17,248 bases of DNA from Candidatus Methylomirabilota bacterium (lineage in GTDB: Bacteria; Methylomirabilota; Methylomirabilia; Methylomirabilales; 2-02-FULL-66-22). The stretch's first letter is position 1. Each line of letters opens with the position of its first letter. The DNA lies in NCBI GenBank assembly GCA_016209725.1, contig JACQVO010000121.1, positions 1-17,248 of the forward strand, given 5' to 3'. Of this stretch, positions 3,272-17,067 are shown one piece after another. The position numbers and the translations under genes are program-made. The notes beneath the pieces were generated by a model, which was given only the letters and a program-made list of their open reading frames with translations, had not been told where the DNA came from and did no database searches.

Positions 3272-3299
3272 GGGGACGTTGTTTCTGAAATTGACTTAT
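3272..3299 (+). repeat. 28-nt repeat, copy 1 (left inverted repeat of the transposase unit)
   Basis: Direct reading: ggggacgttgtttctgaaattgacttat. Confidence 0.9.
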
Positions 3300-3351
3300 T
3301 CCTCGCTGCCGTGCTAGCCTCTCGAGTTGATCTACAGTGGAGGCTCATCCC

Positions 3352-4323
3352 ATGCCCCGTCAAGCGCGCCTCGATGCGCCCGGGACGCTCCACCACGTGA
3401 TCCTCCGCGGGCTGGAACGGGGGCGCATCGTCCGGGACGACACCGACCGGCACGCCTTCGTCACCCGCCTGGCAGAGGTCGTCCAGGCGACCGGGACCAC
3501 GGTGTATGCCTGGGCTCTTCTCCCGAATCATGCCCACCTGCTCCTCCGGAGCGGGAGGGCCGGCCTCCCGACCGTGATGCGGCGGCTGCTCACCGGCTAC
3601 GCCCTCACCTTCAACCGCCGCCACCGCCGGATCGGACACGTCTTCCAAAACCGCTACAAGTCCATCGTGGTGGAAGAGGACCCGTACTTTCGCGAACTGG
3701 TGCGCTACATTCACCTCAATCCCCTCCGCGCCGGCCTGGTGTCTGACCTCGTGGCGCTCGCGCGCTACCCCTGGAGTGGGCATGGCGGCCTGCTCGGCCG
3801 CGTCCCCCAGCCCTGGCTGGCGGCGCCGGCCGTCCTGCGCTGGTTCGGCAGAGCCGCCCGGCAAGCGCGGCAAGCCTACAGCCGGTATGTGGCCGAGGGG
3901 AGGGCGCTTGGCCGCCGCCCCGAGCTGGTCGGCGGGGGCTTGGTGCGCTCTGCGGGCGGCTGGGCCGTCGTGCAGGCCTGGCGCCGGCGGGGGGAGGCCG
4001 TCGCCGCAGACCCGCGGATCCTGGGGACAGGCGAGTTCGTCGAGCGCGTCGTGGCCGAGGCGGACCCGCGGCATCGCCCGGCACCCAGGGGCCGGCGGCC
4101 GGAGGCCATTGCCCGGGTATTCCGCACGGCCTGCAAGAAAACCGGGATTGAAGAGGGGGAGCTGCGGACCGGGAGCCGGCGCCGGGCAGTCGCCCGCCTG
4201 CGGGGCGTGGTAGCGAAGCGGCTTGTGACGACGCTTGGCCTTTCCCTGGCCGACGCCGCCCGGCAGCTCGGGGTCTCCACCTCGGCCATCTGCCGGGTGG
4301 TGGGGAAAGCCGGGGGACCATAA
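3352..4323 (+). CDS. HUH-Y1 (IS200-like / REP-associated tyrosine transposase-like) protein with C-terminal helix-turn-helix
   Basis: MPRQARLDAPGTLHHVILRG... N-terminus. HUH motif in LPNHAHLLL. Candidate catalytic Tyr in FQNRYKSIVV. YIHLNPLRAGLV is typical of this family. The C-terminal LGLSLADAARQLGVSTSAICRVV is HTH-like. ATG at 3352 is preferred over the GTG at 3337 because GGAGG (3339-3343) sits 8 nt upstream. Confidence 0.8.
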   Translation: MPRQARLDAPGTLHHVILRGLERGRIVRDDTDRHAFVTRLAEVVQATGTTVYAWALLPNHAHLLLRSGRAGLPTVMRRLLTGYALTFNRRHRRIGHVFQNRYKSIVVEEDPYFRELVRYIHLNPLRAGLVSDLVALARYPWSGHGGLLGRVPQPWLAAPAVLRWFGRAARQARQAYSRYVAEGRALGRRPELVGGGLVRSAGGWAVVQAWRRRGEAVAADPRILGTGEFVERVVAEADPRHRPAPRGRRPEAIARVFRTACKKTGIEEGELRTGSRRRAVARLRGVVAKRLVTTLGLSLADAARQLGVSTSAICRVVGKAGGP

Positions 4324-4347
4324 GTCAATTTCGGAAACAACGTCCCC
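4320..4347 (-). repeat. 28-nt repeat, copy 2 (right inverted repeat, inverted orientation)
   Basis: ataagtcaatttcggaaacaacgtcccc is the reverse complement of copy 1 with one mismatch. Confidence 0.9.
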
Positions 4348-4922: not shown

Positions 4923-4950
4923 GGGGACGTTGTTTCCGAAAATGACTCAT
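4923..4950 (+). repeat. 28-nt repeat, copy 3 (same orientation as copy 1)
   Basis: ggggacgttgtttccgaaaatgactcat has 3 mismatches to copy 1 and 2 mismatches to the reverse complement of copy 2. Confidence 0.85.
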
Positions 4951-5020
4951 GTCCCGCTGCCGTGCTGGCCGCGCGACGAGAATTTCAATGGAGGCCCGGC
5001 CGATGCCCTGCCAAGCGCGC
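4923..5020 (+). pseudogene. Decapitated second copy of the transposase unit (repeat, leader, SD, first about 6 codons only)
   Basis: After the 28-mer, the leader (cgctgccgtgct.gcc ... a.tggaggc.c..cc.ATGCCC..CAAGCGCGC) aligns collinearly with 3300-3369 of the intact copy. This includes the GGAGG and the start codon at 5003 (MPCQAR vs MPRQAR). Similarity ends at about 5020. Confidence 0.6.
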
Positions 5021-6456: not shown

Positions 6457-7569
6457 GTGGACACGCTGCTCCAGCAGATCCAGGCGTTCCTGTCGCTCCC
6501 CAGGGAGGCCCGGACGCGCCAAGGGCGCGAGGCGCTCCTCCAGGCCCTTGGGGTGCCCCAACCCTCCCGCTTCATCGAGGAGGTGTGGACCAGCCAGTGG
6601 GAGGCGGGGATCGATCGCCTGCTCGACCCCGCCAATACCCGGATCCGCCCCCTGGAGCCCACCGACTTTCACTTCAAGTGGGCCCTGGAAGCGTTCAACG
6701 GCCTGCCCGCCCCGGTCCGGGCGCGACTCTTCACCATGAAGATGGAGGCGAATGGTCTCCGGGGGCCGGTCCTGGCGCTGCTGGATGCGGCGGGCCTCTC
6801 CACGCACGCCTTCGAGGTTACGGATCTCGTGGCGCTTTCCAAGGTCCACGCCGAGGCGGCCGCCACCGTCCGCATCCACGACGGCCGCACCTGCCAGTGC
6901 GAGCTGTCTCACTTCGCCCCCGAGGCGGAGGCGCTGTACGCCGGCGCGGCGCGGCTTTTCCGCCTGCGCACCGCGACGACGTACATTCACCCCCTTCCGA
7001 CGGGCCGCCAGATCCTGCTGGAAGTCCCCTTGCACGGGATCCGTCTCGACGACGAGGACTTACCGCAAGAGGAGATGGGGCGCCTTTGGCCGTTGGCCAT
7101 CCGGGGTGTGGCGCGTCACGACGCGCTGGGCGACGTCCTGGGGACCATCCTGCGCGATCCGCACCACATCCTGACCGGGTCAGGCGAGGTCGTCTCGATT
7201 CACAACTACGAGCTGTTTCACGACATCGGCGGATTCCGCTTCGGGTTCGTCGAGCCGATCTTTCTCTCCCTGTGGCGGAGACTGCGCGGGCCGGATCGCG
7301 GCGAGGAGCGTGCCCCCCTCCGCCGGATGTTCGAGGAGTATCGCAGGGCCTATGTCGAGAAGCGGCAGGAGATTCAAGTACGCTGGAGCGAGCTGGAGGC
7401 GTATCTGACGGCGCACGGGCAGGCGATCCGGGAATACTTGAAGGGGCAGCAGGACTGGTCGGAAGTGGTGGCTGCCGTCCGGGAACGGGCATTCCGCGAT
7501 CCCGCCCAGTGGGTCCGGACGCTGTTGGAACCGTACCGGGAATCCTACCCGGACCTCCCCGAGGTTTGA
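6457..7569 (+). CDS. Hypothetical soluble protein, 370 aa, no family recognised
   Basis: GTG start at 6457 is preceded by GGAAGGAGG (6443-6451). Amino-acid composition is balanced, unlike the Arg/Pro/Gly-rich overlapping frames. No TM segments and no motif I can name. Confidence 0.6.
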   Translation: MDTLLQQIQAFLSLPREARTRQGREALLQALGVPQPSRFIEEVWTSQWEAGIDRLLDPANTRIRPLEPTDFHFKWALEAFNGLPAPVRARLFTMKMEANGLRGPVLALLDAAGLSTHAFEVTDLVALSKVHAEAAATVRIHDGRTCQCELSHFAPEAEALYAGAARLFRLRTATTYIHPLPTGRQILLEVPLHGIRLDDEDLPQEEMGRLWPLAIRGVARHDALGDVLGTILRDPHHILTGSGEVVSIHNYELFHDIGGFRFGFVEPIFLSLWRRLRGPDRGEERAPLRRMFEEYRRAYVEKRQEIQVRWSELEAYLTAHGQAIREYLKGQQDWSEVVAAVRERAFRDPAQWVRTLLEPYRESYPDLPEV

Positions 7570-7595
7570 TTCCAAATTGACGGCAAGCGGAGGAG

Positions 7596-8771
7596 TTACT
7601 GGCGGCCGGCGCGTTCCAGGATGGACACGATCACGACGATGATGGCGGCCTGGAGGATCAGGATCCCCGCGTCCAGGGGCCGGGCGTTCCGCAGTGCCAT
7701 GCCGGCCAGCCCCATGGAAATGCAGAGGGCGAATATCAGGAAGACGGTCTTCCGCCTGCTCCTCAGGAGAGTCTCCAGCCGGTGGTGCAGGTGGTCCTTC
7801 CCCACGTAGGCGATCCACTCCCGGAATGTCCGAACCTTTCCCGTCACGATCCTGGTTACCGTGATGTGGGTCATGTCGAAGATGAATATCCAGAAGATGA
7901 GCACGGGGGCCGCGATGTCCATGACGCTGCTCTCGGCCCATTCCCCCTTGATCGCCAGGGCAGCCAGCACAAAGCCCAGGAACGTGCTGCCGGTGTCCCC
8001 CAGGAAAATGGCGGCCGGACGCGTCGCCCGGAGGTTGAACGGCAGGAATCCCAGGCAGCTCCCCACGATGGCGGCCGCGAACCATCCCAGAAAGGGCTGG
8101 AAGGTCTGCGCCGCCACCAACCCCAGGAAACCCCCGGTGATGATGCTGAGACCGGTTGCCAGCCCGTCCATGCCGTCGAAGAAATTCATGGCATTGGTGA
8201 TGCCGAGGAGCCAGAGGATGGTCAGGGCCGCGTCTGCCACATTGCCGGCCACGGACCGCGGGAACAAAGTCAGCACCACGCCGGAGCCCATGACCCCGGC
8301 CGCCGCCAGGAGCTGCGTCACCAGCTTGAGCCAGGCCGGAGCGCCCCGGGCATCATCCACGATCCCGATCAGCACGAGCAGCGTTCCCCCCGCCATGATG
8401 GCCATGACCTGCTGATCCAGGATCGAGTTGGCCAGGATGGAGATCCCGAAGGCCGTATAGATGGCCAGGCCTCCGAGGAGGGGCGTCGGCTCCGTGTGGA
8501 CTTTTCGCGAGGCCGGGAAGTCGAGCACCTGCAGCAGGGAGGCGATGCGGATGACCAGGGGGGTGAACCCGAAGGAAATGAGTCCCGACACCACGAGAAT
8601 GTACAGCCAGCGGGCACCCGACATGTGCCACGTGGTCCGGACGCCGGGAAGCAAGAGAGCGCCCGCCAGCCCCAGGCTGAGGAGGCTGATCCACAGCGGG
8701 TACCGGGCGATGCCGCCTTGGGCGGGAACCGCGGGCGGCCCGATGGCCGCCCGGCTCCCCGACTGACTCAT
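7596..8771 (-). CDS. MraY/WecA-family polyprenyl-phosphate N-acetylhexosamine-1-phosphate transferase (initiating transferase)
   Basis: Multi-TM protein with NAMNFFDGMDGLA and IFLGDTGSTFLGF motifs. The start is trimmed to the ATG at 8771, which overlaps the upstream DegT stop as ATGA. The Arg/Pro-rich extension up to 9062 is out-of-frame reading of the DegT gene. Confidence 0.85.
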   Translation of the reverse strand: MSQSGSRAAIGPPAVPAQGGIARYPLWISLLSLGLAGALLLPGVRTTWHMSGARWLYILVVSGLISFGFTPLVIRIASLLQVLDFPASRKVHTEPTPLLGGLAIYTAFGISILANSILDQQVMAIMAGGTLLVLIGIVDDARGAPAWLKLVTQLLAAAGVMGSGVVLTLFPRSVAGNVADAALTILWLLGITNAMNFFDGMDGLATGLSIITGGFLGLVAAQTFQPFLGWFAAAIVGSCLGFLPFNLRATRPAAIFLGDTGSTFLGFVLAALAIKGEWAESSVMDIAAPVLIFWIFIFDMTHITVTRIVTGKVRTFREWIAYVGKDHLHHRLETLLRSRRKTVFLIFALCISMGLAGMALRNARPLDAGILILQAAIIVVIVSILERAGRQ

Positions 8772-9841
8772 CCCAGCACCCGCTGGAGGGCGCGGGTCAC
8801 CAGGGTCTCTTCCCGTGGCGTCAAGGCGGGATACACCGGCACGGACAGTCCATGGCGAAAGGCATGGGCGGCTCCGGGGAATCCGTCGAGTCCCAAGGTC
8901 AGGTGGAGGGGTCGGAAGACCGGGGGGCGGGCAGTGACACCCAATCCGGCCAGGCGGCGGGAGGCCGCCGTGGCCGCCGTGGGCACGCCGATGACGAAGC
9001 GGTGATAGACGTGGCTGCGTCCGGCGCCGGACGGAGGGAGGGTGATGGGCAGGTCTGCCCATTGGCGGCGGTAGCGTGCGGCGATGGCCGCCCGGCGGGA
9101 CAGCATGGCGGGCAGCCGGCGCAACTGGCTCCGGCCCAGCGCCGCCTGGAAGTCCGTGAGCTTGTAGTTGAACCGCATCCGGTGCTGCCGGCGTTCGTCG
9201 TACTCCCGCCGGTCCCGCATGCGAGCCACGAGGCGCGGGTCGCGACTGAGCAGCATCCCCCCTTCGCCGGTCGTCAGCAATTTGGTCGCGTAGAACGAGA
9301 CGATGCTGGCGCTTCCGAAGGCACCGACGGGCCGTCCTCGATACCGGGCGCCGAAGGCCTGGGCGCAGTCCTCGATCAGGGGAATGCCGAGGGCGAGGAG
9401 ACCCTCCAGATCCGCGGGGAGACCGAACTGGTGGGGAACGATGACGGCGCGGGTCCGCCGCGTGAGCCGCCGCCGGACGTCGGCGGGATCCAGGTTATAG
9501 GTGGCCGGGTCCACATCCGCCAGACGGGCAGTGGCCCCGACGTACTGCACGGCGTGCAAGGGGGCCACGCAGACATAGCTCGGCAGGATCACCTCATCGC
9601 CCGGACCGATGCCCAATCCCAGGAGGGCCAGGTGCAGGGCGGCGGTTCCCGAGCTGACCGCCAGGCCGGGCGGGAGCCCCAAGCACTCGCCAACCTCGGC
9701 CTCGAAACCGGCCACCTCGGCCCCCTGCGCCAGGGCCCCGCTTGCGACCACGCGGGCCACGGCCCGCACGTCGGCGGCAGTGATCCAGGGGCGAGAGTGC
9801 GGAACACACTCAGGCGACTTGGCAGTCCGGCGATCTGGCAA
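8768..9841 (-). CDS. DegT/DnrJ/EryC1/StrS-family PLP-dependent sugar aminotransferase
   Basis: HSRPWIT..., SSGTAALHLAL, PSYVCVAPLHAV, DCAQAFGA, SFYATKLLTTGEGGML (PLP lysine context). The only in-frame start is the TTG at 9841, which lies inside an octamer-repeat block, so the start is uncertain. Confidence 0.8.
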   Translation of the reverse strand: MPDRRTAKSPECVPHSRPWITAADVRAVARVVASGALAQGAEVAGFEAEVGECLGLPPGLAVSSGTAALHLALLGLGIGPGDEVILPSYVCVAPLHAVQYVGATARLADVDPATYNLDPADVRRRLTRRTRAVIVPHQFGLPADLEGLLALGIPLIEDCAQAFGARYRGRPVGAFGSASIVSFYATKLLTTGEGGMLLSRDPRLVARMRDRREYDERRQHRMRFNYKLTDFQAALGRSQLRRLPAMLSRRAAIAARYRRQWADLPITLPPSGAGRSHVYHRFVIGVPTAATAASRRLAGLGVTARPPVFRPLHLTLGLDGFPGAAHAFRHGLSVPVYPALTPREETLVTRALQRVLG

Positions 9842-9850
9842 TCGGGGATC
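9811..9850. repeat. Block of about 5 degenerate tandem octamers (caggcgac ttggcagt ccggcgat ctggcaat cggggatc)
   Basis: 8-nt periodicity read directly from the sequence. Same unit family as 9856-9919 but phase-shifted. Overlaps the first 10 codons of the DegT ORF. Confidence 0.6.
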
Positions 9851-9855
9851 CTTTC

Positions 9856-9919
9856 TAGGCGGTCAGGCAGTCAGGCAATCGGGCACCCAGGCAATCGGGC
9901 AACTCGGCGGTCAGGCGAT
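9856..9919. repeat. Array of 8 tandem octamers, consensus about CAGGCAAT / CGGGCAMC (left arm of the four-helix-bundle cassette)
   Basis: taggcggt caggcagt caggcaat cgggcacc caggcaat cgggcaac tcggcggt caggcgat, read directly from the sequence. Confidence 0.85.
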
Positions 9920-9990
9920 TCGTTCCACACCTCATCCGCAAGCATCTCGGCCAGTCGGTAGATTCGCAGACCCTTAAGACCCTCGGCCAT
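9871..9990 (-). pseudogene. Truncated four-helix-bundle (23S rRNA intervening-sequence protein / Avd-like) gene, N-terminal about 25 codons only
   Basis: ATG at 9990 is preceded by GGGAGGGAG. MAEGLKGLRIYRLAEMLADEVWNE resembles the N-terminal helix of a four-helix-bundle subfamily (..L.vYqLaeeLaDeiW..). The frame then runs into the octamer array (SPDRRVARLPGCPIA) and stops. Confidence 0.45.
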
Positions 9991-10027
9991 TTCCGCTCCC
10001 TCCCATGGATTTTCTTGTCTCCCCCCT

Positions 10028-10067
10028 GATTGCCCGAGTGCCAGAGTGCCCGATTGCCGGTTGCCAG
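10028..10067. repeat. Array of 5 tandem octamers (gattgccc gagtgcca gagtgccc gattgccg gttgccag), inverted relative to 9856-9919 (right arm)
   Basis: The reverse complement of these units (gggcaatc etc.) matches the left-arm units. For example, ccggcaatcgggcac vs caggcaatcgggcac is 14/15. Confidence 0.8.
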
Positions 10068-10070
10068 CCT

Positions 10071-10691
10071 TCAGGGATTGATATTGATGAACAACCGGAG
10101 GGGGATGAAGCCTTCGGCGTTGCGGACGCGGCCCTGGATTCCCCGGAAATGGGCCGAAGACCGGGCGATGTCCAGGATGGACAGTCCCTCGATATTGGTC
10201 TTGCCAACCTGGGAGCCGTGGGCCTGGAGGGTGGCGATCTTGTCTTCCAGGACACTGTCCACGTCCACGAAGACGGAGGGGGAGAAGTTCTGGGTGGTGG
10301 GTCCCTCGTAGAACAGGACGTTTCGCGTGTACCGGGTGGCGGTGATCGTGGAGGTGGCCAGGTGGCGGTGATCCTGGTGGGTGTCGTCGTGATAGTGGAC
10401 GAAGATGAAGTCCGGCTGTGCCTCGTGGATCACGCGCTCGACGCGCTGGATGATTTCGCGGTCCAGGGGGATGGCGGTATCGGGGTATCCCCCCCAGAAC
10501 AGCTTGGAGGCCCGGAGGATTTGGGCAGACTCCTCCTGCTCCCGCCGCCGGATGGCGCCGTCGCCGCCGCCGCTCCCGTCGGTCATCAGCAGCAGGAAGA
10601 CCTGGTGTCCCTGCCGGGCATACTTGATCAGGCTTCCTCCGCAACCGATTTCGATATCGTCCGGGTGGGCGCCGATGGCCAGGATGCGCAT
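10071..10691 (-). CDS. PIG-L/LmbE-family N-acetylglucosaminyl deacetylase
   Basis: MRILAIGAHPDDIEIGCGGSLIKY... is the canonical AHPDD.E.G.GG motif, and HQDH lies downstream. SD GAGAGGTGA precedes the ATG at 10691. Confidence 0.85.
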   Translation of the reverse strand: MRILAIGAHPDDIEIGCGGSLIKYARQGHQVFLLLMTDGSGGGDGAIRRREQEESAQILRASKLFWGGYPDTAIPLDREIIQRVERVIHEAQPDFIFVHYHDDTHQDHRHLATSTITATRYTRNVLFYEGPTTQNFSPSVFVDVDSVLEDKIATLQAHGSQVGKTNIEGLSILDIARSSAHFRGIQGRVRNAEGFIPLRLFININP

Positions 10692-10702
10692 AGGTCACCT
10701 CT

Positions 10703-10734
10703 CTCACGCAGAGACGCAGAAGCGCAGAGGAGAA
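10703..10734. repeat. Arm of the GxxExxY cassette containing 3 tandem octamers (cgcagaga cgcagaag cgcagagg)
   Basis: ctcacgcagagacgcagaagcgcagaggagaa. It matches the reverse complement of 11182-11210 at 24/27 positions ungapped, with the first 15 identical. Confidence 0.85.
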
Positions 10735-10785
10735 CTACGGCCTATTCCCAATACGACGGACACCATCCCTGATGATCAGTGCACC
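10735..10785 (-). pseudogene. Vestigial 3' end (last 16 codons plus stop) of a second, diverged GxxExxY gene
   Basis: The minus strand reads GALIIRDGVRRIGNRP*, against GAPVIKDGIRRIVNRL* in the intact gene 65 nt away. By hand alignment, 38/51 nt are identical to 10800-10850. Confidence 0.55.
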
Positions 10786-10799
10786 ACAGCCGAGCAAAA

Positions 10800-11177
10800 C
10801 TACAGCCTATTCACAATACGGCGGATGCCGTCCTTGATGACTGGCGCCCCAAAGTTGATGAGGGGGCCCAGTCTGTAGTCGAGCAGGCGAAGGTAGGTCA
10901 GGAGCTGCTTTGAGTGAACGCGGGAAAGCTCCTCCACGGATTTCAGCTCGACGACGACGCAGTGTTCTACGATCAAGTCTGCTCGAAACCCCTCCTCAAA
11001 GCGGATTCCCTCGAACTCGATGGGAACAGGCTTCTGACGCTCGACCTTCAGACCTCGCCTCCCCAACTCATGAGCCAAAACCACCTCGTAGACGGACTCA
11101 AGCAATCCCGGCCCGAGTGTGCGGTGGATGTGAAAGGCCGCATCCACGATCGTGCCTGAGATTGAATTGAGATCCAT
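10800..11177 (-). CDS. GxxExxY protein (PD-(D/E)XK nuclease-fold, PDDEXK_3-like)
   Basis: GPGLLESVY is the GxxExxY signature. FRADLIVEHCVVVELKSVE is a D...E.K nuclease-like core. Size about 125 aa. The ATG at 11177 overlaps the WbqC TGA by one nt (TGATG). A GTG at 11180 is an alternative start. Confidence 0.85.
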   Translation of the reverse strand: MDLNSISGTIVDAAFHIHRTLGPGLLESVYEVVLAHELGRRGLKVERQKPVPIEFEGIRFEEGFRADLIVEHCVVVELKSVEELSRVHSKQLLTYLRLLDYRLGPLINFGAPVIKDGIRRIVNRL

Positions 11178-11920
11178 CACCTTCTCTGCGTCTCCGCGTC
11201 TCTGCGTGAGACGTCAACGTGGCATTCGAGCGGCGACCAGGAGCGCCCCGATCGGATGATCGGCAGGCTCTCCGGGCCGCAATTGAGGAGCAAATCTATC
11301 ACTGCCAGGGTGGAAACGAAAGGCGGATATCGCTGGGGGTACTCGGGATGCCGGTAGGCCTGGACCTGGATGGCAATGCCTGCCTGGCTGAAGCGGCTGA
11401 CGTCCATGTAGGATGGGCCGGTCGGACCGGCGAGATACGTGGTGCCGCCCACCGCGCGGCAGAGGTCGATCAGGCGTCCGGTGGGGTCCTCCTGCGCCTG
11501 CAGGCTGGAGGCCAGGATACGGGGGGTTGTGATGCCCAGGTGCTGGCAGAGCACGTCCGTGACGGCGACGTTCAGCTCGCTCAGGCGGGCCCAGGGCCGC
11601 TCCAGCAGGGCCTGGAGGGCCGGCCCGAGGGGATCCCAAAACGGTGCCCGGCCGTAGTGCAGGCGGAGGGCCTGGCAGTGTTTGCGCTGCCAGTCCGTCC
11701 GGGGATTGATCTCCACCCGGTCAATCCGTTCGGGAAAGCGGTCGATGATGGGCACGGTCAACCATTGCCAGCCGTCCTTGGTGCGAATGCGGTTGCGGTT
11801 CTGCCACTCGTGCTTCGTGAACTGGACCGTGTCCAGGAGGATGAAGACATCGGCCGAGTCCAGCTTGTCGAAGTACCCCAGCCAGGGAAGGTAGTGCGGT
11901 TGATGGATGGCGACCTTCAC
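11177..11920 (-). CDS. WbqC-like family protein (polysaccharide-locus protein of unknown reaction)
   Basis: MKVAIHQPHYLPWLGYFDKL...FILLDTVQF...WQNRNRI matches the WbqC-like family N-terminus. GTG start at 11920 overlaps the upstream stop (GTGA). The last about 11 codons (SRRDAETQRR*) are encoded by the cassette arm. Confidence 0.8.
   Translation of the reverse strand: MKVAIHQPHYLPWLGYFDKLDSADVFILLDTVQFTKHEWQNRNRIRTKDGWQWLTVPIIDRFPERIDRVEINPRTDWQRKHCQALRLHYGRAPFWDPLGPALQALLERPWARLSELNVAVTDVLCQHLGITTPRILASSLQAQEDPTGRLIDLCRAVGGTTYLAGPTGPSYMDVSRFSQAGIAIQVQAYRHPEYPQRYPPFVSTLAVIDLLLNCGPESLPIIRSGRSWSPLECHVDVSRRDAETQRR
11182..11210. repeat. Arm of the GxxExxY cassette containing 3 tandem octamers (tctctgcg tctccgcg tctctgcg), inverted relative to 10703-10734
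   Basis: ttctctgcgtctccgcgtctctgcgtgag, read directly from the sequence. Confidence 0.85.
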
Positions 11921-13476
11921 GGGCTGCCTCCGCGCCCCGTCCTGACAAAGATCGGGTTGCTCAGGATCTGGTGCCCGCCCGGACCGCGGACCTCCAGGCG
12001 ATAGAACAGACTGGTCTCCGCCGGGAGGTCGGATTCACTCCATTGGAGGGTGACGGGGGTCTCCCCGCGCCCCGAGTGGACCACGCTGCCGTTCCGCACC
12101 AGGAGCGTCTGGATCCCGATCCGCCGTTCCCCCGTGGCACGGATCACGGCGCGCACCTCGGGCCTGTCGCCGGCACGCAGCGCCAGCCGATCGCCCGCCT
12201 CGGCGGCGGGGTGGTCGGGGAGAATCACCTGGAACTGGTCGAGGGCCAGGCCAATCTCCGGGGTGCGCTGCAGGGCATAGAAGCGTCCCTTGCGCAGGGC
12301 TTCGAGAAGCGCGGCCGGGTCCTTGCGGTCCACCAGGAAGACCGTTTGGACGTCGCCGAATCGCTTGCCCGCCTGCCCTTCGCGATGGTAGGCCGCCTCG
12401 CCGATCGCCCAGGCAGGAACAGCCCGACGGCCACTGAGATAATCGGCCAGGAGCCGGTCCCACCCCCCGCCGGGCTGGGTGAACGTCGTGGTGTCCTCGT
12501 AGACGCCGCCGAAGGCGGTGAACCGATCCGTCCGGAGGAGATCGGACGGGTAGGGATCGGTGTGGATCGTCGCCTGCATCCGTGCCACGGTGACCAATTG
12601 GTGATCCCGCGCCTCGGGCATGGACCAGACCGCCAGGCCGCCCCGCGCGGCGACGAAATCAATCACCGCCTGGTGCGGCCGCAGCCCCGCCTCCGAATCA
12701 TACGGGGAGACCGGGGGCGTGCGAAAGGGAAAGTTGTTCGCCAGCAGGGCTGCCCCGATCGTCAGGCAGAGGACGCCGCAGCCTGTGAACCGGCGCTCCA
12801 CGGTGAACTTGACGTGCTGGAGGCGAACGAGTCGCCTGCGCCGAACCCGGAGCAGCCACACCCCCGGCACCGCCAGTGTGACGGGGGAGAGGAGCCACAG
12901 GCTTCCAAGACCCCAATGGGCGGCGTTGGCGTTTCCGACGACGGGGAGGTCCCGGTAATCCTCGGGCCGATTCAGGCCGAGGACCAGGATGTTCTTCTGC
13001 CCGTTATACATCGTCAGCGTGCCCTGGAACAGGTTGCCCGTCCAATAATAGTGCGGGATCACCTCCGCGCCGGGAATGAGGACCACATCCTGCTGGCGGG
13101 CATTGGCGGCCCGGACTGCATCCAGGAACGGTTCGGGTCCCTGGCTCATGAGCGAGGGGTATTCCACCCGGTAGCGCAGGAGGTTCCGGAGAGGGGGCAG
13201 CCCGTATTCAAAGCGCTGCAGGTGATTCTCGGTCAGGAAGATGGCATCGACCCCCACGACGCGCGCACGGGCCACCAGTCCGTCGAGGGTGAAATCGCCG
13301 GAGCTCCACGTGGTGTGCGCGTGCACGACGGCGGGGATCGGGCGCAGGGGGCCGGCAGCGTGAAGCGGTGTGGCCGCCAGCATGACCAGACCCATCGCCA
13401 GCCCCAGATATGCGACTCTCCGTCCGGTCCGGCGTCCTAACCCCCATTCGAAATTCCTTGGCGACCTTGGCGTCAT
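11917..13476 (-). CDS. Membrane-anchored PHP-domain-like metal-dependent phosphoesterase (tentative)
   Basis: N-terminal signal/anchor (RRTGRRVAYLGLAMGLVMLAATPLHA). VVHAHTTWSSGDFTLDGLVARARVVGVDAIFLTENH resembles the PHP H.H...S.D motif block. Internal hydrophobic segments near LGSLWLLSPVTLAVPGVWLL and CGVLCLTIGAALL. No clear SD, so the start is uncertain. Confidence 0.5.
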   Translation of the reverse strand: MTPRSPRNFEWGLGRRTGRRVAYLGLAMGLVMLAATPLHAAGPLRPIPAVVHAHTTWSSGDFTLDGLVARARVVGVDAIFLTENHLQRFEYGLPPLRNLLRYRVEYPSLMSQGPEPFLDAVRAANARQQDVVLIPGAEVIPHYYWTGNLFQGTLTMYNGQKNILVLGLNRPEDYRDLPVVGNANAAHWGLGSLWLLSPVTLAVPGVWLLRVRRRRLVRLQHVKFTVERRFTGCGVLCLTIGAALLANNFPFRTPPVSPYDSEAGLRPHQAVIDFVAARGGLAVWSMPEARDHQLVTVARMQATIHTDPYPSDLLRTDRFTAFGGVYEDTTTFTQPGGGWDRLLADYLSGRRAVPAWAIGEAAYHREGQAGKRFGDVQTVFLVDRKDPAALLEALRKGRFYALQRTPEIGLALDQFQVILPDHPAAEAGDRLALRAGDRPEVRAVIRATGERRIGIQTLLVRNGSVVHSGRGETPVTLQWSESDLPAETSLFYRLEVRGPGGHQILSNPIFVRTGRGGSP

Positions 13477-13516
13477 GGCGGTTCAAGTGTTTTTTCGGAT
13501 CAGGGCTAACAGCGGG

Positions 13517-14653
13517 CTACCTGGAGCGGCCATCGGCCGTCACCTCTCGGTACACCTTGGCCAGGGCATCCAACATGGCCTGGGCGCTGTAGCGCGGGGC
13601 GCGGCGGCGTCCCGCCTCTCCCAGGGCGGCGGCCCGGGCCGGATCCTGAAGCAACGTGCCGATGGCCTCGGCCAGGGCCGCCGAATCGCGGGCCGGCACC
13701 AGCAGTCCCGCCTCCCCGTCGCCCAGGAGTTCGGCCACCCCGCCCACCCGCGTGGCCACGATCGGCTTTCCCAGGGCCATGGCCATGACCAGGACCCTCC
13801 CCATGCCCTCGTTGAGGGACGGAAGCGCCACGATATCCATTCCGGCCATGATCGAGGGAACGTCCTCGCGGAAGCCGGCGAAGGTGATCCGATCCCCAAG
13901 ACGGAGCGCGCCCGCCTGCGCCTCGAGCGCCGCCCGCGTCTCGCCGTCACCGACCAGGAGGAACCGGGCCTCGGGGCATCGTTGAAGAATCTGCGGAACG
14001 GCGTCGATCAGATAGTTGAGACCTTTGATCGGGGTGAGGCGTGCGATGACGCCGATCACCGGCCCCCCCGATACCAGGCGCACCGGCATGGCGGCCTGGA
14101 CGCCGTCGAGGTCCACCCCGCTGGGGATCGTCACGAACTGCTCCGGACGTCCGATCCCGTGCCGCAGGTGATCGCGCGCCTCCGCGTCGCTGAGCGTGAT
14201 GATGCGGTCCGTGAAGCGGGCCGCCACCCGTTCCAGCGCCAGGAAGACGCGGGTCGTGACCGGGGAGAAGTAGCCCTCGAAGATGTGGCCGTGCGGAGTA
14301 TGCAGGATGTGGGGGACCCCCGCAGCCCGGGCGGCGACGCGGCCCAGGAAGCCGGCCTTGGAGGAGTGGGTGTGGACGATGTCGGGCGGCACCCGGCGGA
14401 GGACCCGCCGCAACTGCCAGAGGGCCCGGCAGTCCGCCACCGGACTCACGAGGCGGCGGAGGTGCGGCACCTGGATCCACGCCACGCCGGCCCGCGAGAG
14501 GGTCTCGGAGAGTCCCGGCGGAGGATCCGCCGTCGCCCCCGACACGATGCTCCCGGTGAACTCCGCCCCGGGCATCCGGGTCGCGGAGATCACGGTGTTC
14601 TCCGTGGATCCCCCCACGTCCAGGCGGGTGATGATGTGGACGATACGGACCAC
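13517..14653 (-). CDS. Glycosyltransferase family 4 (GT-B, Glycos_transf_1)
   Basis: VVRIVHIITRLDVGG N-terminus, HTHSSKAGFLG, and LVGDG......FAGF.....PSLNEGMGRVLVMAMALGKPIVATRVGGVAELL (E-x7-E region). The start is trimmed to the GTG at 14653, 2 nt after the methyltransferase stop. The longer listed ORF up to 15454 is an out-of-frame extension. Confidence 0.85.
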   Translation of the reverse strand: MVRIVHIITRLDVGGSTENTVISATRMPGAEFTGSIVSGATADPPPGLSETLSRAGVAWIQVPHLRRLVSPVADCRALWQLRRVLRRVPPDIVHTHSSKAGFLGRVAARAAGVPHILHTPHGHIFEGYFSPVTTRVFLALERVAARFTDRIITLSDAEARDHLRHGIGRPEQFVTIPSGVDLDGVQAAMPVRLVSGGPVIGVIARLTPIKGLNYLIDAVPQILQRCPEARFLLVGDGETRAALEAQAGALRLGDRITFAGFREDVPSIMAGMDIVALPSLNEGMGRVLVMAMALGKPIVATRVGGVAELLGDGEAGLLVPARDSAALAEAIGTLLQDPARAAALGEAGRRRAPRYSAQAMLDALAKVYREVTADGRSR

Positions 14654-14655
14654 GC

Positions 14656-15594
14656 TCAGCCTCTGCTCTCCGGTTCGGCGAATGCCAGCAGGGATGGGGC
14701 ACACAGGAGATGGCCGGCCGTGAGGGCCGCGACGGTGCCCGCCAAGGTTCGTCCCACGGCGGTGAGGCCCGCCAGCCCCAGACGCGTGACGCCCCCGCGC
14801 GGGGAGAGCCAATCGGCCCCGCTGATCGGGGCGTTGTGGATGTGGACGAGCCCGAAGCCAGCCGTCCTCAGCAGGCAAGCCAGGGCACGGGCGTTCAAGT
14901 TGAACGGGTGGAAGATCACCAGGGCATGCAGGCGGTGCGCCAGTCGGGACGGGGTATGCCGGATCATCTCCCAGACAGCACGGTGAAAGGCCCCGTTGGG
15001 GATCCGAACCACCAGGAGCCCTTTCGCCCCAAGAACTCTGCGCACGGCTCCCAGCAAGGCGACCGGATTCGGCGCCTGGTCGAGGACGTTGATCAGGGTG
15101 ACCACATCGAATGCCCCTTCGGGCAAGTCGGCGTCCTCCAACGGCACGGCCTTCACCTTCAGGCCGTAGCGGGCCTGGGCCACACGGCAGGCTTCGATGC
15201 AGGGATCCACGCCGGCGATATCCCAGCCGATGGTACGGGCCATGGCCAGCAGGTGGCCCGCGCCGCAACCCACGTCCAGCCAGCGGCCGGGGGGCCGTCG
15301 GGGAATTCTTCCGAGAAGGCTGCGGAGCATGTCCAGGCGCTGCGCGCTGGCCTCCGACGCGCCGAAGTGCCCGAAGTAACGGTTCCGGTAGAAGGCCTCC
15401 TGCTCGACGGGGTCGGGCTGGGGGCTGGCGACATCGGCACCGCATCCCCGGCAATGGGCGAAAAACGCAGCGTCCACGCTGAAGCCACGGGCCAGATCAA
15501 CCCCGGCTCCGCACAGGGGGCAAGGGTCTGGCGGGACACCGGGGGCATCGTGTGGGGGCACGCTGACGGATCCAACCAAGGGTTTACCAAACAT
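14656..15594 (-). CDS. Class I SAM-dependent methyltransferase with N-terminal Cys4 zinc-ribbon-like motif
   Basis: CPLCG...(21 aa)...CRGCG, then LDVGCGAGHLL (SAM motif I) and FDVVTLINVLDQAPNP. Start set at the ATG at 15594 (MFGKPLVG). An alternative GTG at 15708 cannot be excluded. Confidence 0.75.
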   Translation of the reverse strand: MFGKPLVGSVSVPPHDAPGVPPDPCPLCGAGVDLARGFSVDAAFFAHCRGCGADVASPQPDPVEQEAFYRNRYFGHFGASEASAQRLDMLRSLLGRIPRRPPGRWLDVGCGAGHLLAMARTIGWDIAGVDPCIEACRVAQARYGLKVKAVPLEDADLPEGAFDVVTLINVLDQAPNPVALLGAVRRVLGAKGLLVVRIPNGAFHRAVWEMIRHTPSRLAHRLHALVIFHPFNLNARALACLLRTAGFGLVHIHNAPISGADWLSPRGGVTRLGLAGLTAVGRTLAGTVAALTAGHLLCAPSLLAFAEPESRG

Positions 15595-15805
15595 GCTGAC
15601 GCCATCGGTGCGCCCGTCGCATCCCCGCCGGGCGGTGGGCGGCCATCCGCATCGTCCTGGTCTGTGGCAGACGGATCGCGCTGCCCAGACCGTTGCCAGC
15701 TTCCCCACGCGGGAGCCGGACCGGGGGCCTTTGGGGGGGCTCCCCCGTCCCTCGCTTGTCCGTGGGGAAGGTGGCGCGGGTAATGATGTGGATCACGCGG
15801 ATCAT
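15584..15805 (-). pseudogene. Possible relic of a glycosyltransferase 5' end (73-codon ORF, only the first about 10 codons GT-like)
   Basis: The ATG at 15805 overlaps the upstream GT4 stop as ATGA. MIRVIHIITR parallels VVRIVHIITR at the start of the GT4 gene at 14653. The remainder is Arg/Pro-rich and unrecognisable, and it ends 11 nt inside the methyltransferase start. Confidence 0.3.
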
Positions 15806-17067
15806 GGGGTCAGACCTGCCGCTCTGGGCAGCGGCGCTGCAACCCGCGCTAGGTCCCTCAGAACAGCTTCAAGGCGGTCGATCGACATGTCCCAGGTGTA
15901 GTGAGTCTCCGCGTGTAGGCGGCACGCTTGCCGAAGGTGCAGACCTGGCGCCAGGTCAGGACTCCTTGATTCGAAAAAGTGGCGGAGGCCTTCGGCCATG
16001 GCCTCGGCTGTGGCGTCACGGAAGAGGAGCGAGGGGTCCAGGGGACCCAAGATTTCCGGTGTCGCCCCAACGGGAGTCCCGAGGATGGGGGTGCCGCAGG
16101 CCAGCGCCTCCACCGTGATCAGACCGAATCCCTCGAGTTGGCGGGTGGGCAACACGAAGACGTCTGCCGCTTGACAATAGAGAGGCAAATGCGCCTCGGA
16201 GACATATCCCAGGAACCGCACGTGGCCCTGGAGGTCCAGGGAGGCGCTGAGCGATTCCAGTTCGTTTCGGAGAGAGCCCGAACCCCCGATCAGGAGCAGA
16301 AACTCCGGGACATGCCGGCGCAGGATATCCAGGGCCCGGAGCAGATTATCCAGGCCCATCCGCGACTCGAGATTCCGCACCGTCAGGAGCAGGGACGATC
16401 CCACTGGGAGACCGAGCATCCTGCGTATTGCGTGGCGATCCCCCGCAGGCTGGAATCGTTCAGGGTCCACGCCGCCTGCAATCTTGATTATCCGGTCCGA
16501 CGGGATGCTGCGGTACAGCCCCCAGAGCTGATCAGCGGAGAAGCGGCTCAGGACGTGGATGCGCGTCGCCCGCTTCAGGCACGCCCTCTCGATGGCCCAG
16601 AGCATGAGCTGGATGGCCCGGCCGATGGGACCGGAGCGATGGTAGGGCGTCATCCCGGTGCGGCACATGTACTCCATCGGAGCGGGAGAGAGGAAGGTGT
16701 AGAGGCATGGAAGATCCCTGGCCGGATGCGATCGCAAGGCGCCAAAGCCGGAAAACGGCTGGTACAGGTGCAAGATGTCGGCGCCTTCTTCCGCCAGGAG
16801 CCGGGTGACACTTCGGCTAGCCTGGAGGATGGAGCTGAGGCAGAAGCGGAGTGGGGAGCGACGATCCACTGGAAAATGGCTGATCGGGACCCCTTCCCGT
16901 TCGACCGCATAGGTTACCCCATCCCCAGGAGAGCGGCTGAGGATGCGGATCCGGTGGCCGCGCTTGACCAGTCGGGAGGACTGCTCCCACAGAACCCGCT
17001 CCCCGCCGCCCGCGATGGCAAGGGGCGAGACATCGGAGATCATGAGGACGCGGAGGGCAGGGGTCAT
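15802..17067 (-). CDS. Glycosyltransferase family 4 (GT-B, Glycos_transf_1)
   Basis: RVLMISDVSPLAIAGGGERV N-terminus, and LIGGSGSL...FLGYV...VFVLPTRQLEGFGLITVEALACGTPILGTPVGATPEIL. The ATG at 17067 is preceded by GAGGTGA. Confidence 0.85.
   Translation of the reverse strand: MTPALRVLMISDVSPLAIAGGGERVLWEQSSRLVKRGHRIRILSRSPGDGVTYAVEREGVPISHFPVDRRSPLRFCLSSILQASRSVTRLLAEEGADILHLYQPFSGFGALRSHPARDLPCLYTFLSPAPMEYMCRTGMTPYHRSGPIGRAIQLMLWAIERACLKRATRIHVLSRFSADQLWGLYRSIPSDRIIKIAGGVDPERFQPAGDRHAIRRMLGLPVGSSLLLTVRNLESRMGLDNLLRALDILRRHVPEFLLLIGGSGSLRNELESLSASLDLQGHVRFLGYVSEAHLPLYCQAADVFVLPTRQLEGFGLITVEALACGTPILGTPVGATPEILGPLDPSLLFRDATAEAMAEGLRHFFESRSPDLAPGLHLRQACRLHAETHYTWDMSIDRLEAVLRDLARVAAPLPRAAGLTP

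Follow-up and report, generated by a model that had tools for sequence, protein, structure and literature searches.

The DNA analyzed here is a stretch of 17,248 nucleotides from Candidatus Methylomirabilota bacterium (NC10; contig JACQVO010000121.1), called the window below. At two consecutive junctions of a polysaccharide operon in this window, two cassettes were found, each composed of a small open reading frame (ORF), the cargo, between two inverted arms that are made of 8-nt tandem repeats. One cassette carries an intact gene for a GxxExxY protein and the other one the stump of a gene for a four-helix-bundle (4HB) protein of the type known from the intervening sequences (IVSs) of 23S rRNA. 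Both may be members of one class of IVS-type cassettes residing in mRNA operons, with arms that pair with each other, are probably cut by RNase III, and decay to cargo-less hairpins. A probability of about 0.55 was assigned to this reading. The occurrence of an IVS-type cassette outside rRNA, the use of this design by a second cargo family, and arms that are built from repeats would be new. The 4HB “IVS proteins” are among the commonest uncharacterized small bacterial proteins and, to our knowledge, neither they nor the GxxExxY proteins have a known function. Both families gain a testable context here, which consists of cargo-matched periodic arms, sites at operon junctions, and an IVS-like anatomy.

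Anatomy of the two cassettes

The operon spans 7.6 to 17.1 kb of the window and is located on the minus strand, as are all genes and arms of the operon given below. The junction between the genes for WbqC (11177-11920) and for a PIG-L/LmbE deacetylase (10071-10691) holds the GxxExxY gene, and the junction between the PIG-L gene and the gene for a DegT aminotransferase (8768-9841) holds the 4HB (PF05635) stump, with the PIG-L gene located between both cassettes. The original prediction had placed the two families at consecutive junctions of one operon, each framed by its own inverted arms with an 8-nt period and each junction with signs of decay, and it was confirmed in these three respects.

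Tandem Repeats Finder reported period-8 arrays at 9863-9902/9858-9916, 10031-10058, 10706-10729, and 11183-11207, which form two inverted pairs, and no further period-8 array in the 17-kb window. The 5' arm of the GxxExxY cassette (11181-11211; sense sequence TCTCACGCAGAGACGCGGAGACGCAGAGAAG) contains three CGCRGAG units at 8-nt spacing and is 87% complementary over 31 nt to the 3' arm (10702-10732; sense sequence CTCCTCTGCGCTTCTGCGTCTCTGCGTGAGA), which has GTGAGA at its outer end. The motif CGCAGAG-N-CGCAGAG occurred four times in the window, every time inside the two arms, compared to an expectation of 0.43, and none of 200 shuffled sequences reached this number. Folding of the cassette RNA yielded a minimum-free-energy structure (z = -5.0) that is closed by the paired arms. 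The 5' arm of the 4HB cassette (10025-10067; sense sequence GGCAACCGGCAATCGGGCACTCTGGCACTCGGGCAATCAGG) begins 3 nt past the PIG-L stop codon and is composed of GGCAnTCn octamers, and the 3' arm (9818-9916) comprises two octamer blocks at 9855-9916 and 9818-9851. Positions 9866-9899 pair with 10025-10058 over 34 nt with 79% complementarity, which reaches 90% in a 29-nt core. The fold of the GC-rich 4HB vestige had a z value of -1.6, and the arm stem (29-34 nt, 79-90% complementary) was present in the minimum-free-energy as well as in the centroid fold.

The GxxExxY gene (10800-11177) encodes 125 aa from the ATG at 11177, and the GTG at 11180 is another possible start codon. Its product belongs to the PD-(D/E)XK superfamily and matched TIGR04256 (E = 5.8e-42) and PF13366 (E = 6.5e-41) over the full length, with 142.7 and 139.8 bits compared to curated cut-offs of 35 and 22, respectively. 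The GxxExxY motif and the D...ExK signature are kept, with G24, E27, Y30, D67, E77, and K79 being invariant in 28 homologs. The closest relatives of the gene came from Methylomirabilis metagenome-assembled genomes (MAGs), and in public data, the family forms 20,000 or more clusters at 50% identity. A sequence search gave no solved structure homologous to the protein. An AlphaFold model of mediocre quality (pLDDT 69.6) was compared with the PDB by Foldseek, which produced no match with an E value below 0.7, only noise.

Between the intact gene and its 3' arm, region 10733-10799 comprises an 11-nt stub of a 3' arm and, after it, what is left of a second GxxExxY gene, a diverged 3' end of about 17 codons and a stop codon. 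This vestige is visible as a 65-nt direct repeat (10724-10788 versus 10789-10853, 75% identical) representing the diverged last 17 or so GxxExxY codons plus the stop codon, and it aligned with about 70% identity to the 3' ends of the genes in the homologous loci L001, L002, L005, and L089 (loci and proteins from other sources are indicated by L or P and a number). A GxxExxY remnant was also present in L001, there upstream of the intact gene instead of downstream as in the window, and the remnants were about 70% identical to each other and to the intact genes. These extra remnants support repeated insertion or replacement at one junction, in line with the prediction. Proteins with two tandem GxxExxY domains and 250-295 aa were observed as well (P0241, P0242, P0244, and others); they are presumably fused or read-through tandem cassettes.

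The 4HB stump (23S_rRNA_IVP; 9871-9990) retains codons 1-24 (9990-9919; MAEGLKGLRIYRLAEMLADEVWNE) in a form homologous to intact orthologs before the frame enters the 3' arm. Hidden Markov models from the libraries failed to detect it. In a tblastn comparison, the 24 codons were 71% identical to the N terminus of the intact orthologs in L005 and L001, and a profile made from the intact orthologs matched the stump at E = 7.5e-7. These orthologs, 133-143 aa in length (143 aa in L005), are encoded between the PIG-L and DegT genes of orthologous operons, matched PF05635 (E = 1.5e-23) and TIGR02436 (E = 7.2e-24), and also the PDB entries 2gsc and 2rld. The presence of intact orthologs at the same junction, together with the profile match, proves that the stump is the remnant of a 4HB gene. 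An intact gene was present in L005, L080-L086, and L091-L095. It was truncated in the window and to a lesser degree in L089, and in L002 it was absent together with the DegT gene.

The arms are interwoven with the reading frames and translation signals of the host genes. WbqC reads through the GxxExxY 5' arm. Its Pfam match stops at residue 219 of 247, the tail derives from the spacer and the 5' arm, and the stop codon (11179-11177) overlaps the ATG of the cargo (TGATG). The Shine-Dalgarno sequence GAGGTGA and the ATG of the PIG-L gene (10689-10701) abut the GxxExxY 3' arm, likewise in L001, L089, and L091. The sole in-frame start codon of the DegT gene is the TTG at 9841-9839 within the 4HB 3' arm, with AGGA 8 nt upstream, and the Pfam/PseC match begins at residue 13-21. 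In the orthologs, the start codon is either a GTG abutting the arm or a TTG inside it. The ancestral GTG, present in L005, L080, L081, and L087, reads GTT in the window (9803-9841) and in L084-L086, so that translation must start there at the arm-internal TTG and adds about 12 arm-encoded residues. The preservation of downstream translation signals was thus seen at both junctions, with the DegT start codon in or at the arm in all orthologs. Gene callers extend ORFs through the arms, as illustrated by the arm-encoded WbqC tail and DegT N terminus.

No promoter-like site was found in region 9600-11400, and terminator-like sites in this region were at chance level (1 versus 1.0 expected). No Rfam family matched at E < 1 in the window, and the eight related loci yielded a single tRNA only. 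As a test for an integron, the window ORFs scanned contained no integrase or recombinase domain; compared to an integron gene cassette, the arms are split to either side of the ORF, and there is no single attC site.

Cassettes in other genomes and their neighborhoods

A survey of GxxExxY genes in one genome per GTDB species yielded 79 loci with 81 gene copies, encoding homologs with 60-94% identity, in at least nine phyla (Methylomirabilota, Verrucomicrobiota, Desulfobacterota, Planctomycetota, Acidobacteriota, Pseudomonadota, Bacteroidota, Gemmatimonadota, and Armatimonadota). At least one arm was present within 130 nt of about 74 of the 81 copies. Most loci possessed CTCAC-(GCAAAG-NC)n upstream of the ORF and the reverse complement, ending with GTGAG, downstream of it, with distances of 0-50 nt between arm and start codon and of 0-20 nt between stop codon and arm. 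The simple form, 5' arm-ORF-3' arm, was found for 34 copies and the reverse polarity for 2. Triples of units at 8-nt spacing occurred 168 times, compared to 0-31 times for spacings of 6-13 nt. The units varied by locus (CGCAAAG, CGCAGAG, CGCGGAG, CGCGACG/CGCAACG, CGCCAAG, or CACAAAG) and were identical in both arms of one locus. Since arms are alike between loci, the cross-locus permutation nulls used for the arms were inflated, so that the true excess is larger than the counts quoted. In RefSeq, arms were also found in Sphingomonas parapaucimobilis (fabD-GxxExxY-fabG), Bacteroides finegoldii (GxxExxY between radA and a gene for a FAD-dependent protein, with period 9), and Bernardetia.

The arm class is linked to the cargo. 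In 57 of 78 cases, the nearest-neighbor protein from another locus shared the arm class, compared to a permutation mean of 14.9 and a maximum of 35 in 5,000 permutations, and this was still the case in 50 of 71 when the nearest neighbor had to come from a different phylum. Each arm class spanned 5-8 phyla, the CGCGGAG class goes together with a longer GxxExxY protein, the Geobacter-clade genes in the survey carried CGCGACG/CGCAACG arms, and two paralogs in the one genome of L004 had arms of two classes. That the arm class tracks the phylogeny of the cargo across phyla indicates that the arms and the ORF form a unit in inheritance and transfer, and that the arms are not ordinary repetitive extragenic palindromic (REP) sequences of the host.

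As an alternative, the arms might be REP-like repeats of the host, with the cargo located between them by accident. In 1.03 Mb of flanking sequence, 49 of the 177 arms were more than 600 nt away from any GxxExxY gene, many of them as short hairpins, cargo-less arm pairs were present, tandem clusters were found in L022, L029, and L046, and the window contains a RAYT-like gene. The other 128 arms were concentrated in the 11% of the sequence adjoining GxxExxY genes, an approximately 21-fold enrichment. This enrichment, the co-occurrence of two arm classes in L004, the strict polarity (34 versus 2), and arm classes following the cargo and not the host render this explanation very improbable. The RAYT-like gene itself is flanked by an unrelated 28-nt repeat. 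An origin of the arms from REPs unrelated to the cargo is contradicted by these data, and the proposed recurrent class of junction elements with cargo-specific periodic arms agrees with the enrichment.

The RAYT-like ORF (3337-4323, plus strand), named for its similarity to REP-associated tyrosine transposases, encodes 328 aa and matched PF01797 (E = 3.7e-8) and NF047646 (E = 5.7e-19; 68 bits, below the cut-off of 80). Together with the 96% complementary copies of the 28-nt inverted repeat GGGGACGTTGTTTCTGAAATTGACTTAT on both sides, it forms a REPtron-like unit at 3272-4347, the repeats of which are unrelated to the octamer arms; a third copy is located at 4923-4946. An arm-like match at position 2765 of the window was a chance match within a coding sequence and was discarded.

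An ORF with 80 or more codons on the same strand ended at most 200 nt upstream of the cassette gene in 59 of 71 loci and started at most 200 nt downstream in 48 of 71. The median gaps to the neighbors were 53 nt upstream and 45.5 nt downstream, which is the space for the arms only. The 76 neighboring proteins represented 108 Pfam families, among them ResIII, gyrase, glutamate synthase, NADH dehydrogenase, and leuS, with a handful being sugar-related. According to the original prediction, these genes are often scattered in polysaccharide loci, but no preference for such loci was found. Because the neighbors are functionally unrelated, the cassettes are specific for junctions and not for pathways. 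GxxExxY genes often adjoin restriction-modification genes, and in L113-L116 the cassettes are located between mod and res of a restriction-modification operon.

Concerning the second cargo family, every NC10 4HB ortholog has inverted octamer arms of 3-9 units. The units differ (GGCACTCG nine times in L080, GGCAGTCG, GGCAATTG/GGCGATTC, and CGTCAACT in L001), and paired arms stay complementary. A metagenome scan for 4HB genes gave orthologs at the same junction only, and the wider sample came from IMG/VR and plasmid records. Inverted repeats exceeded the 95% null in 13 of the 18 4HB loci tested and in 8 of the 13 non-NC10 loci (distinct IMG/VR loci). Outside NC10, the period was 7, for instance, in a Gallionella MAG with a 4HB gene between thyA and folA and the heptamer arms GGATTCA/TGAATCC. 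The predicted 8-nt periodicity is therefore a feature of NC10 and most GxxExxY cassettes and not of 4HB cassettes outside NC10 or of the Bacteroides GxxExxY cassette with its period of 9. Arms were also present at 4HB genes of Calothrix brevissima, Geminocystis, Nostoc punctiforme, Trichormus variabilis, Picosynechococcus, Stanieria, and Azospirillum.

Two further observations were made for 4HB genes. In a type III-B CRISPR operon on a plasmid of Picosynechococcus sp. PCC 7003 (L138), an armed cassette separates cas10/cmr2 from cmr3. Cyanobacterial genes (L105-L108, L132, and L133) possess a conserved duplicated leader, ACTTCAAACTT...ACTTCAAACTT, which is located between the 5' heptamer array and the ATG and directly precedes the latter. 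Since cassettes are carried by cultured hosts such as Bacteroides, Sphingomonas, N. punctiforme, and T. variabilis, experiments are possible.

Decay, selection, and a possible mode of action

The junction between the WbqC and PIG-L genes was polymorphic in close relatives, ranging from an intact cassette over an internally deleted one and a solo arm to an empty junction, as the original prediction had proposed. L001, L002, and L005 possessed the GxxExxY gene at this site with 94%, 90%, and 83% identity, respectively, which equals or exceeds that of the neighboring genes. In L089/L090, with a PIG-L 92% identical to that of the window, both arms are kept, and the GxxExxY gene is reduced to its first 5 and last 12 or so codons. 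L093 has a solo 5' arm fused to the start of the PIG-L gene, and L091/L092 and L094/L095 have no arms at this junction. The arm-free junction of L091/L092 contains a small perfect palindrome at 4975-4995 (GTTTTCGC-GAGA-GCGAAAAC), which could be all that is left of a cassette or a hairpin without any relation to it.

Cargo-less arms were also present at other junctions of the operon, which contains, besides the genes named above, genes for GT1 (15802-17067), a methyltransferase (14656-15708), GT4 (13517-15454), a CehA-like protein (11917-13476), and a GT4/WecA-like protein (7596-9062). A solo array of the CGCCAAG type (13456-13483) at the junction of the GT4 and CehA-like genes contains the ATG of the latter (13476). 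The array is also present in L001, and L005 has a complete arm-loop-arm hairpin at this junction, which indicates that a third operon junction was once occupied. A second cargo-less arm-loop-arm hairpin of L005 is located between the CehA and WbqC genes. Both junctions are tight or overlapping in the window, where the WbqC and CehA-like genes share GTGA. In L005, the two sites are covered by 7404-7580 and 9128-9250; the one between the GT4 and CehA genes shows the arrays AGTCGACT and CCAGGCAA and a CGCAAAG-type hairpin, and the one between CehA and WbqC shows a TTGGCAAT/CCCAGGTG hairpin.

Such a series from intact to degenerate to lost is also what a homing cycle would produce. Here, the GxxExxY protein would cut cassette-free alleles or cargo-less arm pairs, and the cassette would be copied during double-strand-break repair, with the arms serving as homology or target. 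The presence/absence polymorphism, the extra-copy remnants at one junction (upstream in L001, downstream in the window), a lower GC content at third codon positions (GC3) of the cargo than of host genes, and a placement between genes similar to that of the phage seg/mob genes agree with homing. The phylogeny of the cargo, however, matches that of the host operon with equal numbers of synonymous substitutions per site (dS) and no sign of re-invasion, and the intact genes are under strong selection long after fixation. The arm pair of L089/L090 still contains the ORF ends and is therefore a deletion product instead of a virgin target, and the 4HB proteins are not nucleases, although the architecture is alike. 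Homing is thus rather unlikely.

The GxxExxY genes had dN/dS ratios of 0.075-0.087 at dS values of 0.6-1.27 compared to their orthologs, with dS being equal to that of the neighboring genes, and the 4HB genes had dN/dS ratios of 0.06-0.19. The equal dS and the low dN/dS ratio of the GxxExxY genes indicate that the insertion into this operon is old instead of recent and has been inherited vertically, with the cargo being under strong purifying selection. The cargo had a GC3 of 0.58-0.78 compared to 0.76-0.88 for the flanking genes; at the individual loci (10601-11200 of the window, L001, L002, L005, L091, and L094), it has remained 0.10-0.25 below that of the flanking genes despite a co-divergence to a dS of about 1, so that no amelioration was seen.

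Purifying selection on the cargo and the conservation of cassette positions across a long divergence may alternatively mean that the cassettes are beneficial to the host. The arms would be regulatory or stability hairpins, involved in transcript processing or translational coupling or used as sites for global regulators, and the small proteins accessory genes, for instance for defense or nucleic acid repair. Arrays in Geobacter metallireducens were read as regulator sites (PMC2700814), and short tandemly repeated repetitive (STRR) sequences as stability or coupling elements (PMC2670836). The frequent location of GxxExxY genes beside restriction-modification genes would also agree with such a function. 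It does not agree with the 108 Pfam families among the 76 unrelated neighbors and the frequent loss or internal deletion in the closest relatives while the operon stays intact. Moreover, the arm sequence varies by locus and even between orthologs, which argues against one trans-acting regulator. A comparison with defense-system models gave no significant match, a Cas4-like similarity being below the threshold. A host-beneficial module is therefore improbable, even more so than homing.

With IVS-type cassettes in mRNA operons as the preferred reading, the following sequence of events would result. A cassette possesses neither a promoter nor a terminator and would be transcribed by read-through in the host operon. 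In the transcript, base pairing between the arms would produce a duplex of about 25-31 bp, with the cargo ORF in the loop. RNase III may cut this duplex as in the IVS of Coxiella, which would free the cargo RNA from the flanking cistrons and limit the expression of the cargo, and operon predictions may overlook a processing site at such cassettes. The downstream host gene would keep or gain a Shine-Dalgarno sequence and a start codon at the outer edge of or within the 3' arm, and the insertion should be tolerated for this reason. Slippage may lengthen or shorten the arms or change their unit while the complementarity between both arms is maintained. Cassettes would be acquired rarely and horizontally, as a unit of arms and ORF, followed by a long vertical persistence under purifying selection. 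They would be lost by internal deletion of the ORF, which leads to a cargo-less hairpin, then to a solo arm, and finally to nothing. In view of the match between arm type and cargo lineage, the GxxExxY protein, a putative nuclease, probably recognizes its own arms, either as DNA or as RNA.

A number of results weigh against this interpretation. The cut by RNase III is proposed by analogy and for the 4HB family only. Arm duplexes of the sense and antisense strands were equally stable (40 versus 40 loci, p = 0.61), in a weak test since duplexfold over-extended the duplexes, and mismatches compatible with G.U pairs showed no clear excess over A.C mismatches (23 versus 17). Lacking this strand asymmetry, the arms resemble RNA stems no more than symmetric inverted repeats of DNA. 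A 4HB gene on a Pseudanabaena plasmid was without arms, and L112 was without an arm on the 3' side. The junction insertion has co-diverged with the operon and gave no sign of recent movement, and a parasite that is merely tolerated would not usually have a cargo under strong purifying selection. GxxExxY genes were found in none of 50,697 phage genomes and on just 4 large non-mobilizable plasmids. Candidates for a recent transposition were two proteins present in exact copies on 8 and 12 contigs, and they were rejected because each was in essentially one context; P0113 had a different downstream gene on one short contig (L117). Flanking direct repeats of 2-6 nt, as expected from a target-site duplication, were no more common than in permutations, library scans revealed no transposase domain in the cargo, and no recombinase was found, which leaves the insertion of the cassettes without an explanation. 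Finally, there was no rRNA near GxxExxY or 4HB genes in 128 fetched loci, a weak negative result because MAG contigs seldom carry rRNA. In the literature, no paper was found that connects arrays of this kind with a GxxExxY or 4HB cargo, or GxxExxY proteins with IVSs; three papers mentioned GxxExxY, and none contained the arm sequences. Of the originally assumed IVS association of both families, the part concerning 4HB stands due to the similar anatomy of the Coxiella IVS, and the part concerning GxxExxY was not supported.

Some of these results would be expected if the cassettes were DNA transposons of the foldback type. The arms would then be terminal inverted repeats (TIRs) cut by the GxxExxY protein as mobility enzyme, the pairing in RNA would be incidental, and 4HB cassettes would be mobilized in trans or by another enzyme. 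The missing sense/antisense asymmetry is in agreement with this explanation, as are the sharp and conserved ends of the arms (C/TCAC...GTGA/G, with the slashes indicating the ends) and the mirroring of even their irregular, non-periodic parts in L067, L044/L051, and L050. The co-variation of arm class and protein lineage across phyla, cargo-less derivatives resembling miniature inverted-repeat transposable elements, and the tandem or fused double copies would also fit. Absent target-site duplications and the absence of identical copies in different contexts argue against it, and so does the strict sense orientation with respect to the host operons, which would be unexpected for a symmetric TIR element. 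Moreover, a PD-(D/E)XK protein of 125 aa has no known strand-transfer activity, and the architecture is common to two unrelated cargo families. We regard a foldback transposon as unlikely, albeit as the most probable of the alternatives.

Comparison with known systems

The eukaryotic Foldback (FB) transposons possess long TIRs composed of short tandem subrepeats with a variable copy number, and many of them are non-coding. In contrast to the cassettes, they are far larger and have a dedicated transposase, and no homology is implied. The seg/mob genes of T-even phages are small genes for GIY-YIG or HNH nucleases at gene junctions that are polymorphic and go through a cycle of decay and loss; unlike the cassettes, they have no flanking inverted arrays, and GxxExxY genes were absent from the 50,697 phage genomes. 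REPIN/RAYT systems consist of a small gene with a short repeat in inverted orientation on both sides, and further copies of this repeat occur as cargo-less hairpin doublets at other sites of the genome. The cassettes share with these systems the small gene between inverted short repeats and possibly the dispersed cargo-less copies, cargo-less arms having been seen in the flanking sequences surveyed. They differ by a cargo that belongs to PF13366 or PF05635 and not to the Y1/HUH transposases, by the internal periodicity of the arms, and by being multi-copy, while a RAYT gene is single-copy with hundreds of REPINs.

The 23S rRNA IVS of Coxiella burnetii contains an S23p (4HB) ORF and a 28-bp terminal stem, and 2-3 tandem GACAGAT heptamers, depending on the strain, come after a Shine-Dalgarno sequence. 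The first repeat is the site of the cut by RNase III, 176 bp of the ORF are deleted in one strain, and the GC content is below that of the host (PMC4990558). The 4HB cassettes resemble such 23S rRNA IVSs, present in Coxiella and Leptospira, in several respects. Their cargo ORF has a size of about 0.4 kb and belongs to the PF05635/TIGR02436 family, and their terminal inverted repeats are comparable to the approximately 28-bp stem. Tandem repeats are located in the arm between the 5' end and the start codon, and their copy number varies (3-9 octamers in NC10). An ORF deletion in some strains, a GC content below that of the host, and a horizontal acquisition followed by vertical maintenance are further common features. 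In contrast to the IVSs, the 4HB cassette of the window resides in a protein-coding operon between the PIG-L and DegT genes and not in rRNA helix 9, 25, or 45. Further differences are the period of 8 in NC10, the additional use of the design by the unrelated GxxExxY family, and the selection on the cargo, which is strong and purifying here, while the ORF of Coxiella decays. The cut by RNase III is an experimental result in Coxiella, compared to a predicted stem here.

The cyanobacterial STRRs are 7-nt tandem repeats that form hairpins between co-transcribed genes such as hupS and hupL (PMC2670836). Similarly, the arrays described here form hairpins between operon genes, with a period of 8 in the window and of 7 in Gallionella and cyanobacteria, and the same cyanobacterial genera hold 4HB genes flanked by inverted heptamer arrays. 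Unlike the cassettes, STRRs were described without cargo. It is proposed that they originated by ORF deletion from 4HB or GxxExxY cassettes, the deletion itself having been seen in the NC10 examples only.

In G. metallireducens, 53 pairs (24, 21, and 8) of 3-5 tandem 7-9-nt repeats on opposite strands were described between consecutive genes, for instance, between those for the pdh E1 alpha and beta subunits, between ntrX and ntrY, and between proB and proA (PMC2700814). These paired opposite-strand arrays between consecutive genes resemble the cassette arms by description only. In contrast to the cassettes, they have other consensus units (GTTGCTYN and TCTCCGTS), were read as sites for regulators of the IHF/HU type, and no cargo was recognized. 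ISGme8 of the IS110 family and ISGme9 of the IS481 family are at a fixed distance from paired octanucleotide arrays in this bacterium (PMC2700814, Table S4), which suggests that other mobile elements use such hairpins as targets, too.

These similarities lead to a wider and tentative view, which is less probable than the reading preferred for the two cassettes of the window. There might be one very widespread, unnamed class of bacterial foldback cassettes with a small ORF between inverted arrays of 7-9-nt repeats, and the arrays would co-evolve with a cargo that binds or cuts its own arms, with GxxExxY, 4HB, and possibly other proteins as cargo. Such cassettes would cross phyla without phages or plasmids, settle in the spacers of operons and rRNA genes, and leave behind STRRs, the Geobacter sites, and ORF-less IVSs after the loss of the ORF. 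This would give a common origin to the rRNA IVSs, the cyanobacterial STRR hairpins, and the paired “regulator sites” of Geobacter.

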